In this document: positions 1,858 to 38,429 of the stretch, piece after piece
Layout of the letters: each line of letters begins with the position of its first letter
Position numbering within the stretch: the stretch's first letter is position 1
DNA from: Escherichia phage vB_EcoP_LNA7
Length of the DNA stretch: 39,592 nt
Direction: 5' to 3' (one strand)
Sequence record: OM630586.1
Notes under the pieces: generated by a model
Seen by the model: the letters and a program-made list of their open reading frames with translations, nothing else
Told to the model about the DNA's origin: nothing
The model's database searches: none
Position numbers and translations under genes: made by a program

Positions 1858-2250
1858 ATGGAGAATTGCATCGAGTGGACTAAAGGTACTAACCAGAAGG
1901 GTTACGGTAGGAAGTGGGTTGACGGTAAGCTGGTTGCGGCGCATCACCACGCCTATGAAGAAGTACACGGCCCTATTCCAGATGGTCTTGTAGTGATGCA
2001 CCTCTGTGACAATCCTAGATGCTATAACGTGGAGCACTTGACTCTTGGGACTCATGCTGACAACTCAGATGACAAGGTGCGTAAAGGTAGACAAGCAAAA
2101 GGTGAAACTCTAAGTAAGAAACTTACTGAGACAGATGTTTTGACTATTCGCACCTTAGACCTGCCGCATGCTGAGATAGCCAAGATATATGGTGTTAGTC
2201 AATCCACCATAACTCGCATAATTAGACGCGACACATGGAGGCATATCTAA
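1858..2250 (+). CDS. 7.7: gene 7.7 HNH homing-endonuclease-like protein
   Basis: 130 aa; HLCDNPRCYNVEHL HNH motif plus C-terminal HTH-like IAKIYGVSQSTITRIIRR; matches T7 gp7.7. Confidence 0.9.
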   Translation: MENCIEWTKGTNQKGYGRKWVDGKLVAAHHHAYEEVHGPIPDGLVVMHLCDNPRCYNVEHLTLGTHADNSDDKVRKGRQAKGETLSKKLTETDVLTIRTLDLPHAEIAKIYGVSQSTITRIIRRDTWRHI

Positions 2251-21290: not shown

Positions 21291-21731
21291 ATGATAAGTA
21301 AGAAGAAGTATGTAGTTGATAAGGAGACTGGCTGCTGGAACTTTAAGGGATGTAAGACGAAGACTGGCTATGGTCGTCTCCGTGTAAATGGAGTCCATTG
21401 GATGGCCCACAGGTATTCCCTGAGTTGTCATCTAGGTAGACCGATAGCTGATGGAATGGTTGTGATGCACCTATGTGATAACCCATCATGTGTTAACCCT
21501 GAGCATCTTAAGGAAGGGACTCAGAAGGAGAACATAGAGGATTGTATATCAAAAGGAAGAGCAACAAAGGCTACTGGTAAACGTATGTCGAGAAGGGACC
21601 CTAGCGAGGAACGTAAGGCTATGGTCATTCGTCGCTACCATAAAGGATGGACAGCAACGTCCATAGCAAGATACCATAAGCTCTCTGTAGCGTGGGTAAA
21701 GAGGGTCATCGAGGCTTACCTAAGTGATTGA
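21291..21731 (+). CDS. Free-standing HNH homing endonuclease between genes 19 and 19.5 (no T7 counterpart at this position as far as I recall)
   Basis: ORF track 146 aa; HLCDNPSCVNPEHL HNH motif, paralogous to gp7.7; C-terminal HTH-like SIARYHKLSVAWVKRVI; SD aaggaggt. Confidence 0.85.
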   Translation: MISKKKYVVDKETGCWNFKGCKTKTGYGRLRVNGVHWMAHRYSLSCHLGRPIADGMVVMHLCDNPSCVNPEHLKEGTQKENIEDCISKGRATKATGKRMSRRDPSEERKAMVIRRYHKGWTATSIARYHKLSVAWVKRVIEAYLSD

Positions 21732-31559: not shown

Positions 31560-32015
31560 GTGGCTGGCGCATACGCTGCGCGTGGTATCCGAAAGGTCGG
31601 GACATTCCGTTCCGGCCTAGAAGATAAGGTCTCTAAGCAGCTAGAGAGTAAAGGTATACAGTTTGACTACGAGCAGTGGAAGATTCCCTACGTAGTCCCT
31701 GCGAGTAATCACACGTATTGCCCAGATTTTCTACTGCCCAATGGTATCTTCATCGAGACCAAGGGGCTATGGGAAAGTGACGACCGCAAGAAGCATCTCC
31801 TGATTCGCGAGCAGATGCCAGAGCTAGATATACGACTTGTGTTCTCAAGCTCCCGCACAAAACTCTACAAAGGGTCTCCAACGTCCTATGCAGAATTTTG
31901 TGAAAAACACGGTATCCTGTTTGCTGACAAATTAATTCCTGTAGAATGGCTCAAAGAACCCAAAAAGGAGGTGCCATTTGACAAGCTGAAACAATCGAAA
32001 GGAGGAAAGAAATAA
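31560..32015 (+). CDS. 3: gene 3 endonuclease I (Holliday junction resolvase), GTG start immediately after the gene 2.5 stop
   Basis: ORF track 151 codons, (M)AGAYAARGIRKVGTFRSGLEDKVSKQLESKGI..., matches T7 gp3; ggag 10 nt upstream of GTG. Confidence 0.85.
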   Translation: MAGAYAARGIRKVGTFRSGLEDKVSKQLESKGIQFDYEQWKIPYVVPASNHTYCPDFLLPNGIFIETKGLWESDDRKKHLLIREQMPELDIRLVFSSSRTKLYKGSPTSYAEFCEKHGILFADKLIPVEWLKEPKKEVPFDKLKQSKGGKK

Positions 32016-34292: not shown

Positions 34293-34718
34293 ATGGACAC
34301 TAACTTAGCGAGATTTGAAAGATTCTTGAAGATTGATGGTGACTGCTGGCTGTTCACTGGTGGAAGGGCACACTCCTATGGAGTCTTCTGGATGAACGGT
34401 AAGAATCACAGGGCACATAGGGCCGCCTTCGAACTTTATAACGGGAGGAAACCTAATGGTGTTATATTACACTCTTGTGATAATCCTTTGTGCTGCAATC
34501 CCTCTCATCTATCTGAGGGAACTCAGCTTGATAATATGGTGGACATGGTTAGAAAGGGACGCTCACTGAGAGGCACGAAGAATCCAATGTGCAAGTTTAC
34601 TGATGTGGATGTTAAGTTCATCCGAGAGTCTACTATGAAGGTTAAGGATTTAGCTGCTTTATTCGGAGTAACACGCCAAACAATAACCAAATGGAGGAGA
34701 CACACATGTTCAAACTGA
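34293..34718 (+). CDS. Free-standing HNH homing endonuclease between promoter phi4.3 and gene 4.3
   Basis: ORF 34254..34718 trimmed to ATG 34293 (MDTNLARFERFLKIDGDCWLF...); LHSCDNPLCCNPSHL HNH motif; C-terminal HTH-like LAALFGVTRQTITKWRRH; 141 aa. Confidence 0.85.
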   Translation: MDTNLARFERFLKIDGDCWLFTGGRAHSYGVFWMNGKNHRAHRAAFELYNGRKPNGVILHSCDNPLCCNPSHLSEGTQLDNMVDMVRKGRSLRGTKNPMCKFTDVDVKFIRESTMKVKDLAALFGVTRQTITKWRRHTCSN

Positions 34719-35712: not shown

Positions 35713-37671
35713 ATGATCGTTTCTGACATCGAAGCTAACGCCCTCTTAGAGAGCGTCACTAAGTTCCACTGCGGGGTTATCTACGACTACTCCACCGCTG
35801 AGTACGTAAGCTACCGTCCGAGTGACTTCGGTGCGTATCTGGATGCGCTGGAAGCCGAGGTTGCACGAGGCGGTCTTATTGTGTTCCACAACGGTCACAA
35901 GTATGACGTTCCTGCATTGACCAAACTGGCAAAGTTACAATTGAACCGAGAGTTCCACCTTCCTCGTGAGAACTGTATTGACACCCTTGTACTGTCACGA
36001 TTGATTCACTCTAACCTGAAAGACACCGATATGGGTCTTCTGCGTTCCGGTAAGCTGCCTGGGAAACGCTTTGGGTCTCACGCTTTGGAGGCGTGGGGTT
36101 ATCGCTTAGGCGAGATGAAGGGTGAATACAAGGATGACTTTAAGCGTATGCTTGAAGAGCAAGGTGAAGAGTACGTTGACGGAATGGAGTGGTGGAACTT
36201 CAACGAAGAGATGATGGCCTATAACGTTCAGGACGTTGTGGTGACTAAGGCTCTACTTGAGAAGTTAATCTCTGACAAACACTACTTCCCCGACCAAGGT
36301 ATCGACTGGACTGACGTAGGTAACACATTCTGGCGTGAGTCTGTAGAGGCTGTCGAGCTAGAGCATAAAGCTGCGTGGCTGCTCGCTAAGCAGGAACGTA
36401 ACGGCTTTCCATTCAATACCAAAGCTATCGAAGACCTGTACGTAGAGTTGGCTGCTCGTCGCTCTGAGTTGCTCATGAAGTTGACCGAAACGTTTGGCTC
36501 GTGGTATCAACCTAAAGGTGGCACCGAAATGTTCTGCCATCCGAGGACTGGTAAACCACTGCCTAAATACCCTCGCATTAAGACACCTAAAGTTGGTGGC
36601 ATCTTTAAGAAGCCTAAGAACAAGGCACAGCGAGAAGGACGTGAGCCTTGCGAACTGGATACCCGAGAGTACGTTGCTGGTGCTCCTTACACCCCAGTTG
36701 AGCACGTGGTGTTTAACCCATCGTCTCGTGACCACATTCAGAAGAAACTCCAAGAGGCTGGATGGGTCCCTACCAAGTACACCGATAAGGGTGCTCCTGT
36801 GGTGGACGATGAGGTACTCGAAGGAGTACGTGTAGATGACCCTGAGAAGCAAGCTGCTATCGACCTCATTAAAGAGTACCTGATGATTCAGAAGCGAATC
36901 GGACAGTCTGCTGAGGGAGACAAGGCGTGGCTGCGTTACGTTCAAGAGGACGGTAAGATTCATGGTTCTGTTAACCCTAATGGAGCAGTTACAGGTCGTG
37001 CGACCCATGCGTTCCCCAACCTTGCGCAAATTCCGGGTGTACGTTCTCCTTATGGAGAGCAGTGTCGCGCTGCTTTTGGCGCTGAGCACCATTTGGATGG
37101 GATAACCGGTAAGCCTTGGGTTCAGGCTGGTATCGACGCATCCGGCCTTGAGTTGCGCTGCTTGGCCCACTTCATGGCTCGCTTTGATAACGGTGAGTAT
37201 GCTCACGAGATTCTTAATGGCGACATCCACACTAAGAACCAGATGGCTGCCGAACTGCCTACCCGTGATAACGCTAAGACGTTCATCTATGGGTTCCTTT
37301 ATGGTGCTGGTGATGAGAAGATTGGACAGATTGTTGGTGCTGGTAAAGAGCGCGGTAAGGAACTCAAGAAGAAATTCCTTGAGAACACCCCAGCGATTGC
37401 AGCACTCCGTGAGTCTATCCAACAGACCCTTGTCGAGTCCTCTCAGTGGGTAGCTGGTGAGCAGCAAGTAAAGTGGAAACGCCGCTGGATTAAAGGTCTG
37501 GATGGTCGTAAGGTACACGTTCGTAGTCCTCACGCTGCTTTGAATACCCTACTGCAATCTGCTGGTGCTCTCATCTGCAAACTGTGGATTATCAAGACCG
37601 AAGAGATGCTCGTAGAGAAAGGCTTGAAGCATGGCTGGGATGGGGACTTTGCGTACATGGCGTGGGTGCAT
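35713..37671 (+). CDS. 5: gene 5 DNA polymerase, exon 1 (653 codons)
   Basis: ORF track 35713..37722; homology to T7 gp5 stops after ...DFAYMAWVH at 37671, and the remaining 17 codons of the ORF are intron sequence. Confidence 0.9.
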
Positions 37672-38273
37672 AAACAAATTTCATTGTGCACATTAAATCT
37701 GGTGAACTCGGTGAAACCCTAATGGGGCAATACCGAGCCAAGCCATAGGGAGGATATATGAGAGGCAAGAAGTTAATTCTTGAGGCCACTGAGACTGGCT
37801 GTATCATCCCTACGTCACACAAACTTAATGCCGATGGTTATTTCAGAAAGAAAACCAATGGCGTCTTGGAGATGTATCACAGAACGGTGTGGAAGGAGCA
37901 TAATGGAGAAATACCAGAAGGCTTCGAGATAGACCATAAGTGTCGCAATAGGGCTTGCTGTAACATAGAGCATTTACAGATGCTTGAAGGTACAGCCCAC
38001 ACTGTTAAGACCAATCGTGAACGCTACGCAGACAGAAAGGAAACAGCTAGGGAATACTGGCTGGAGACTGGATGTACCGGCCTAGCACTAGGTGAGAAGT
38101 TTGGTGTGTCGTTCTCTTCCGCTTGTAAGTGGATTAGAGAATGGAAGGCGTAGAGACTATCCGAAAGGAGTAGGGCCGAGGGTGAGACTCCCTCGTAACC
38201 CGAAGCGCCAGACAGTCAACTCAAAGGCTGATGATATAGTCCGACACTCCTAGTAATAGGAGAATACAGAAAG
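37672..38273 (+). mobile_element. Group I self-splicing intron (602 nt) in DNA polymerase gene 5, carrying an HNH homing endonuclease ORF
   Basis: Exon 1 ends in U; intron ends in G; internal guide GUGCAC (37686..37691) pairs with exon end GUGCAU including the U.G wobble; R-like AGAGACUA (38152..38159) and S-like GAUGAUAUAGUCC (38230..38242) can form P7; joining the exons restores a 704-codon polymerase. Confidence 0.85.
37758..38153 (+). CDS. Intron-encoded HNH homing endonuclease
   Basis: ORF track 131 aa; EIDHKCRNRACCNIEHL HNH motif; own SD gggagg; lies entirely within the intron. Confidence 0.85.
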   Translation: MRGKKLILEATETGCIIPTSHKLNADGYFRKKTNGVLEMYHRTVWKEHNGEIPEGFEIDHKCRNRACCNIEHLQMLEGTAHTVKTNRERYADRKETAREYWLETGCTGLALGEKFGVSFSSACKWIREWKA

Positions 38274-38429
38274 GATGAAATTCAAGTAGGTTGCCGCACC
38301 GAAGAGATTGCTCAGGTGGTCATTGAGACCGCACAAGAAGCAATGCGCTGGGTTGGAGACCACTGGAACTTCAGGTGTCTTCTGGATACCGAAGGTAAGA
38401 TGGGTCCTAACTGGGCCGTATGTCACTGA
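38274..38429 (+). CDS. 5: gene 5 DNA polymerase, exon 2 (51 codons plus stop)
   Basis: Encodes DEIQVGCRTEEIAQVVIETAQEAMRWVGDHWNFRCLLDTEGKMGPNWAVCH, the canonical gp5 C-terminus, in frame with exon 1 once 37672..38273 is removed. Confidence 0.85.
   Translation, partial: DEIQVGCRTEEIAQVVIETAQEAMRWVGDHWNFRCLLDTEGKMGPNWAVCH

Follow-up and report, generated by a model that had tools for sequence, protein, structure and literature searches.

The stretch of DNA analysed here (the window) comprises the 39,592 nucleotides of Escherichia phage vB_EcoP_LNA7 (OM630586.1), in which the genome of this relative of phage T7 is circularly permuted. The DNA polymerase gene of the phage (gene 5) is interrupted by a group I intron, which carries an open reading frame (ORF) of 131 amino acids at positions 37758..38153. 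With a probability of about 95%, the ORF is an orthologue of I-TslI, the HNH homing endonuclease encoded in the P6a loop of the IA2 intron of T7-like polymerase genes. Its product is identical to I-TslI of phage PhiI (AAV53690.1) at 129 of 131 positions (98%), and the two substitutions, E51D and E54D, are both conservative. The exact sequence of the ORF product is present in a public protein collection, where it shares a 90% cluster with AAV53690.1. An earlier, sequence-only reading of the window had proposed that gene 5 contains a group I intron bearing a gene for an HNH homing endonuclease; the proposal is borne out by a match to the Pfam family HNH_3, by the identity to I-TslI, and by the covariation that supports the intron. 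The element is already known, since it was first described in phages PhiI and W31 and is annotated in the RefSeq record of phage 13a. The ORF is thus real but ordinary, and adds little beyond the known system. Coordinates are those of the window, and gene 5, the intron, and the features within them are on the plus strand.

The introns of PhiI and W31 are 601 nt long and contain an I-TslI ORF of 131 amino acids (PMC1995217; reference records AY769989, AY769990, and AAV53690, Bonocora & Shub 2004, 2009). The ORF in the window has the same length, whereas the intron is 602 nt long, with one additional base in L1 relative to PhiI. The two systems have in common gene 5 as the host gene, the H|D insertion site in motif C, the P7.1-GUA-P7.2 arrangement, and the position of the ORF in P6a. 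The backbone of the window phage differs from that of the PhiI system: over 25 kb, it shares approximately 93% identity with T7, and the phage collection contains no record that exceeds 95% identity to the window across this length. In an enzyme list in PMC8845596, I-TslI is entered as an intron homing nicking enzyme.

The protein encoded by the intron ORF matches HNH_3 with a score of 59 bits, compared to a cut-off of 24.8 bits (E-value 3.5e-16), so that the comparison with HNH family profiles suggested in the earlier reading gave a positive result. Its best match in the PHROG database is phrog_6254 (E-value 1e-47). The motif EIDHKCRNRACCNIEHL, noticed previously, is located at residues 57–73. 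It contains the catalytic and zinc-binding pattern H60-x-C62-x-N64-xx-C67-x-N69-xx-H72 (37935..37973), which was delimited by a regular expression and by conservation among homologues. All 207 homologues with E-values of 1e-10 or lower belong to HNH_3. Residues C15, H41, H60, C62, C67, and H72 are invariant among 50 homologues, and N64 and N69 are present in at least 90% of them. The intron ORF retains all the catalytic and zinc-binding residues, namely the histidine general base, the asparagine, the asparagine/histidine metal ligand, and the cysteine/histidine zinc site. The ratio of non-synonymous to synonymous polymorphism (pN/pS), calculated for the whole ORF against six homologues, is 0.13–0.34. 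The ORF is intact and under purifying selection.

The AlphaFold model of the protein has a mean predicted local distance difference test score (pLDDT) of 87, and starts with a beta-rich nuclease domain at the N-terminus, which is followed by a long helix and a C-terminal pair of helices. Around the residues expected of a beta-beta-alpha-metal site, strand 56–60 precedes the short helix 70–72 and strand 73–77, with pLDDT values above 90. The C-terminal helices, formed by residues 108–115 and 119–130, constitute a helix-turn-helix-like tail (residues ~108–130, 38079..38147), which has weak matches in Pfam to HTH_23 (E-value 0.038, residues 111–130) and HTH_Tnp_4. The best fold match identified in the PDB by Foldseek, with weak scores, is I-HmuI (1u3e), followed by I-PpoI, and both are His-Me finger enzymes. 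I-HmuI, I-HmuII, and I-BasI, which are nicking enzymes of Bacillus phages, resemble the window ORF in being HNH enzymes from group I introns in polymerase genes, in which the nuclease domain is N-terminal and a helix-turn-helix is C-terminal. However, the hosts of these phages are Gram-positive, their introns occupy Pol I site 674 rather than 881 (PMC3428280), and I-HmuI, despite being the top structural match, is only 17% identical to the window protein in the structural alignment.

Gene 5 is divided into exon 1 (35713..37671), which ends with ...AWVH and contributes its last base, U37671, as the U of the P1 U.G pair, and exon 2 (38274..38429), which begins with DEIQVGCR... at Asp654 of motif C and terminates with a TGA stop codon at 38427..38429. 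Without splicing, the frame that starts at 35713 is cut short by a TAA (37720..37722). When 35713..37671 is joined to 38274..38429, the product is a polymerase of 704 amino acids with 97.3% identity to T7 gp5 and 94.6% identity to T3 gp5, and the junction ...FAYMAWVH|DEIQVGCR... aligns with both without a gap. The exon junction ...GCGTGGGTGCAT|GATGAAATTCAAG given in the sequence-only reading is therefore correct. The removal of 602 nt, which yields this gap-free product, defines a predicted self-splicing group I (IA2) intron at 37672..38273 that ends with G38273, the omega-G. It follows that the intron is inserted between the codons of His653 and Asp654, and splits the His-Asp-Glu (HDE) of polymerase motif C. 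In PhiI and W31, the introns interrupt the gene at the H of HDE, which corresponds to site 881 of E. coli Pol I (PMC3428280). Gene 5.5 follows directly after exon 2, and the place held by gene 5.3 in T3 is empty in the window phage. Gene 5 is best annotated as the joined coding sequence 35713..37671 + 38274..38429, and the intron ORF as I-TslI-like.

Several points weigh against the assignment to I-TslI. The similarity to I-HmuI found by Foldseek is weak (E-value 0.011, TM 0.38). A sequence search of the PDB identified no relative, with a single chance match to a GroEL-like protein at an E-value of 0.13. The activity, cleavage site, and mobility attributed to the window protein would carry over from published work on the PhiI enzyme, to which it is 98% identical. 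Furthermore, the window does not reach the Rfam gathering score of 50 bits for RF00028, and a scan of the whole window at that threshold was empty. In E-value mode with relaxed filters, applied to positions 37600..38350, RF00028 matched 37662..38263 with 44.8 bits (E-value 4.4e-10), and the alignment placed a large insert after a false R element. The score remains under the gathering level because the 396-nt ORF insert is misplaced by the model. A natural ORF-deleted relative, L033, scores 51.6 bits, which is above the gathering score. We read the sub-threshold score as a limit of the model, and as no argument against membership of the group I introns. The sequence itself contains nothing that counts against an I-TslI orthologue.

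Because of the misplaced insert in the Rfam alignment, the structure of the intron was redrawn by hand, with helices P1, P3, P4, P5, P6, P6a, P7, P7.1, P7.2, P8, and P9, and checked by covariation. Homologues of the intron were taken from IMG/VR (34 loci) and from GenBank records of phage 13a, Aeromonas phage PT2, two Salmonella phages, and one Kuravirus, in addition to the window. The resulting alignment (A2) contains 18 distinct intron sequences, from which most of each ORF was cut out. In these sequences, 95.1% of the cells of the hand-drawn structure hold standard pairs, compared to 35–45% when the 3' partners are slid by 1–3 columns. Double-sided compensatory changes occur in 25 of the 58 pairs, compared to 3–6 in the slid controls, and none of 500 shuffles matched the observed pairing or covariation score. 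RNAalifold without a supplied structure found P1, P3, P4, P5, P8, and P9, and 21 of its pairs were compensatory. The intron is thus a true group IA2 ribozyme with a complete core, composed of P1, P3–P9 including the P3/P7 pseudoknot, and P10.

P1 (37666..37691) is formed by the 5' strand 37666..37673 (GUGCAU|AA) and the internal guide 37684..37691 (UUGUGCAC). The splice-site pair U37671.G37686 is retained in 18 of 18 sequences, and G is the last base of the intron in all 30 retrieved copies. P10 connects L1 (37677..37685) to exon 2 (38274..38282), as indicated by pairing and covariation; in the 18-sequence alignment, it is 6–9 bp long in 11 cases and 4 bp long in the others. The P10 guide covaries with the silent third base of the Glu655 codon: AUUUCAU pairs with AUGAAAU where the codon is GAA, and AUCUCAU with AUGAGAU where it is GAG. 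The intron thus follows silent changes of its host exon.

Within the core, the P3 strands 37698..37704 and 38206..38212 pair with each other, with double compensatory changes in five of seven pairs, and both P4 (37707..37713 with 37731..37737) and P5 (37717..37719 with 37725..37727) are 99–100% paired. The 5' strands of P6 and P6a are located at 37742..37743 and 37744..37746, respectively. The P6 pair G37742-C38149 is GC in eight sequences, AU in six, and GU in four, and the P6a pair U37746-A38141 is UA in ten, UG in six, and CG in two. An alternative P6 of three base pairs, GCC/GGC, was dropped in favour of GC/GC followed by CAU/AUG, the sole version that is compensated in L006, L007, and the L008 clade. 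P6a is only 74% paired in the alignment because the pairing in the L008 clade (CAUU/AAUG) is shifted by one base, which does not break the helix. P7 is invariant and 100% paired, with its 5' strand (38155..38159) in the R element and its 3' strand (38237..38241) in the S element. P7.1 (38160..38162 with 38167..38169) is compensatory in all three pairs (UA/GC, CG/GC, CG/UA), and P7.2 (38173..38201) follows after a GUA linker. The segment 38160..38201 reads UCC-GAAA-GGA, GUA, and then GGGCCGAGGG...CCCUCGUAACCC. The P7.1-GUA-P7.2 arrangement between P7 and P3', which is the hallmark of IA2 introns (PMC3428280), is therefore present in the window intron. P8 (38213..38217 with 38226..38230) and P9 (38247..38252 with 38257..38262) have compensatory changes in four of five and four of six pairs, respectively.

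The 131-residue intron ORF reported earlier is confirmed. It begins with an ATG, 11 nt past the 5' strand of P6a and thus within the P6a loop, which is also where the endonuclease ORFs of PhiI and W31 are placed (PMC3428280). It is preceded by the Shine-Dalgarno sequence GGGAGG (37748..37753), 4 nt upstream of the ATG; a purine tract of the GGAGG, GGAGA, or GGAG type occupies this position in every relative examined. The 3' end of the ORF extends into the ribozyme. The 3' strand of P6a (38141..38143, AUG) overlaps UGG of Trp129, the 3' strand of P6 (38148..38149, GC) overlaps GCG of Ala131, and the UAG stop codon (38151..38153) lies in J6/7. The 5' strand of P7 starts 2 nt past the stop codon, at 38155. 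The ORF had been described as ending at an R-like element, and its TAG is indeed immediately followed by AGACUA, the portion of the R element that spans J6/7 and P7. It had also been described as occupying a peripheral loop, which is correct for the point of insertion. However, codons 128–131 (E-W-K-A, preceded by the conserved KWIR) and the stop codon supply P6a', P6', and part of J6/7, and since they double as ribozyme strands, the loop does not hold the whole ORF. Among the last 12 codon positions (counting the stop codon), 7 have an invariant third base, compared to ~1.3 per 10 elsewhere. In the L008 clade, the ORF extends 9 nt further and its stop codon is inside P7. A ribosome completing the ORF would have to melt P6 and P6a. 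We propose that, as the terminating ribosome opens these helices, translation of the endonuclease and splicing may be mutually exclusive on one RNA. Given the overlap, the C-terminus of the protein and the ribozyme would be expected to co-evolve.

A homologous intron is present in Escherichia phage 1-6af, a Kuravirus (OR983333; L042:2410-3016), and encodes a 131-amino-acid endonuclease that is 59% identical to that of the window. This 76-kb phage is unrelated, and its family-A polymerase gene is interrupted at the identical H|DE position (...VIDMH|DEGQ...). In OR983333, the ORF and both parts of the polymerase are entered as hypothetical proteins. The search of the literature found no link between Kuravirus and group I introns. 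It is possible that the 3' end of the ORF is hard-wired into the ribozyme, with mutual exclusion of translation and splicing, and also that the composite crossed from Autographiviridae to Kuravirus; we hold this joint claim tentatively, at slightly less than even odds. No prior description of either the overlap or the Kuravirus transfer was found, and both are refinements of a known system rather than a new type of system.

The sequence-only reading had placed the intron ORF in a family distinct from that of three free-standing HNH genes in the window (1858..2250, 21291..21731, and 34293..34718), which would make its arrival an unrelated invasion. The three were correctly named as HNH proteins, as confirmed by Pfam, but a separate family for the intron ORF is unsupported and improbable. 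All four ORFs match HNH_3, with E-values of 3.5e-16, 3.7e-15, 9.5e-9, and 2.7e-12. The best PHROG match of the ORF at 21291 is phrog_6254, shared with the intron ORF; the ORFs at 1858 and 34293 have phrog_59 and phrog_1872 as their best matches, and also match phrog_6254 with E-values of 1e-30 and 2e-20, respectively. A search of the six reading frames of the window with the regular expression H.C.N..C.N..H found exactly these four HNH ORFs and no other. They align end to end, with identical motif spacing, the same order of domains, and invariant residues C15, H41, H60, C62, N64, C67, N69, and H72. The helix-turn-helix-like tail, taken earlier as a mark of the free-standing genes, is found there but also in the intron ORF, and all four tails are aligned over ...FGVS.S...KWIR. 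Every pairwise BLASTP comparison of the intron ORF with the three is significant (E-values 1e-11 to 2e-7).

Nevertheless, the intron ORF stands apart from the other three. It is 27–40% identical to the free-standing proteins, which are 37–41% identical among themselves, and its motif residues DHKCRNRACCNIEHL differ from the HxCDNPxCxN[PV]xHL of the free-standing genes. The free-standing motif was previously written as H-x-CDNP-x-C-x-NP-x-HL, which holds as the flavour of a subclade, except that the ORF at 1858 has NV in place of NP. Unlike the intron ORF, the three genes are intergenic and carry the CDNP...N[PV] flavour, and T7 gp2.8 and gp7.7 group with them. The closest relatives of the intron ORF belong to a polymerase-associated lineage, whose members include T3 gene 5.3 (48% identity) and an ORF of Vibrio phage CHOED (55% identity). 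Judged from these comparisons, the intron ORF is a separate lineage inside the same family and architecture.

The product of T3 gene 5.3, called F-TslI, is an HNH endonuclease whose 48% identity to the intron ORF extends over residues 6–94, the nuclease domain. Its gene is located directly downstream of an intron-less gene 5, and adjacency to the polymerase is therefore common to both. In contrast to the intron-borne ORF of the window, the T3 protein is free-standing, has 101 amino acids, and lacks the C-terminal helix-turn-helix tail. T7 gene 5.3 was considered as the free-standing counterpart and rejected, since it is not an HNH gene (phrog_5018, function unknown); T3 gene 5.3 is the relevant relative. 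The location of the nearest free-standing relatives next to polymerase genes fits the model in which a free-standing endonuclease aimed at a site in the polymerase gene moved into an intron at that site, as the model of Bonocora & Shub 2009 is summarised in PMC3984707.

The CHOED homologue (KJ192399; L043:2491-2890) is full-length, includes the helix-turn-helix tail, and is positioned directly past the stop codon of the DNA polymerase gene, fused to approximately 80 additional residues at its C-terminus. The state before invasion of the intron may be represented by this homologue, which carries the tail that T3 gp5.3 lacks.

The intron contains no site resembling a T7 promoter (no 23-mer with six or fewer mismatches from the consensus), and the ORF has its own Shine-Dalgarno sequence; its message is therefore the transcript of gene 5 or the intron RNA after excision. 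A phage promoter within the intron had been suggested by ..CCATAGGGAGG.., which resembles the 3' end of the T7 promoter, and was refuted by the scan with the 23-mer consensus. In a mixed infection, the I-TslI-like enzyme would cleave intron-less copies of gene 5 close to the insertion site, and repair from the intron-bearing genome would transfer the intron with its ORF to the cleaved allele, the process known as homing. The allele that hosts the intron would be immune because the intron divides the target. The ribozyme would restore the HDE active-site codons in the mRNA, so that the insertion would be harmless. Cleavage of intron-less gene 5 and mixed infection have reportedly been published for PhiI and T3 by Bonocora & Shub 2009; experiments are said to have shown that mobility of the intron depends on I-TslI, and that I-TslI and T3 gp5.3 cut at identical positions.

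It is very unlikely that the protein serves mainly to aid splicing, for instance as a maturase, or to exclude rival phages as a weapon, rather than to act in homing. Splicing is aided by some intron-encoded endonucleases, and the overlap of the 3' end of the ORF with P6a, P6, and J6/7 makes translation and folding interact. Cutting the polymerase gene of a competitor favours flanking markers, as for I-HmuI-type enzymes, and this would count for exclusion. However, the Pfam matches of the intron ORF include no RNA-binding domain, and the introns of PhiI and W31 are cited as self-splicing in the passage of PMC3428280 that refers to Bonocora & Shub 2004. Natural variants speak against a role in splicing as well. 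Three IMG/VR loci from sample 3300045988 (L032:2422-2855, L033:2421-2816, and L034:2421-2802) have deletions of 186, 225, and 239 nt, respectively, in the endonuclease gene. The deletions are independent; the HNH motif is lost, and the 3' end of the ORF and the ribozyme core are retained, with one of the introns at the Rfam gathering score. The intact cores of these ORF-deleted introns suggest that the protein is dispensable for splicing.

The three loci form a natural series of homing-endonuclease decay. That the window ORF is itself a decaying, inactive remnant, kept since ribozyme folding needs its 3' end, would agree with this decay and with the RNA-level constraint on the 3' end of the ORF, but is very unlikely for a full-length ORF that differs from the characterised enzyme in just two residues, has all the invariant residues, and shows low pN/pS over its entire length.

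An I-TslI orthologue in this intron is one instance of a widespread element. The whole element of intron and ORF is present in at least 40 phage records with 74–98% DNA identity, including phages 13a and K1F, and phages of Yersinia, Klebsiella, Salmonella, and Aeromonas. In the RefSeq record of 13a, gene 5 is already a joined coding sequence with an internal HNH endonuclease. The related loci constitute a compact natural series for the life cycle of a homing endonuclease at a single polymerase site, comprising full-length genes, the three independent internal deletions, the free-standing full-length neighbour of a polymerase gene, and the Kuravirus copy.

The intron protein is identical to WP_252549056.1, named 'HNH endonuclease [Staphylococcus hyicus]' in RefSeq, which is encoded on JALGNY010000019.1 (39,671 bp). 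The gene order of this contig is T7-like (DNA_pol_A, HNH_3, gp5.5, gp5.9, exonuclease), which identifies it as a T7-like phage contig in a Staphylococcus assembly, and thus as the origin of the RefSeq protein. Its presence in the Staphylococcus hyicus assembly is probably the result of contamination.

L032 contains a second, ORF-less group I intron (L032:1680-1950, RF00028 68.7 bits) approximately 470 nt upstream in the polymerase gene. This intron divides motif B at ...RNNAKTF|IYGFLYG, and its S-like motif, near position 1918 in L032, is also present in L010, L018, L019, and L028.

The free-standing nuclease genes of the window differ in content and position from those of T7. The ORF at 1858 is the orthologue of gp7.7, with 70% identity to T7 gp7.7. 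Of the two inserted HNH genes, the one at 21291 follows gene 19, and that at 34293 is located between gene 4 and the promoter phi4.3. T7 genes 2.8, 3.8, and 5.3 are missing from the window, with gaps relative to T7 at 31563/31584, 32522/32557, and 38430/38433. Free-standing nuclease genes have thus undergone mosaic turnover relative to T7.

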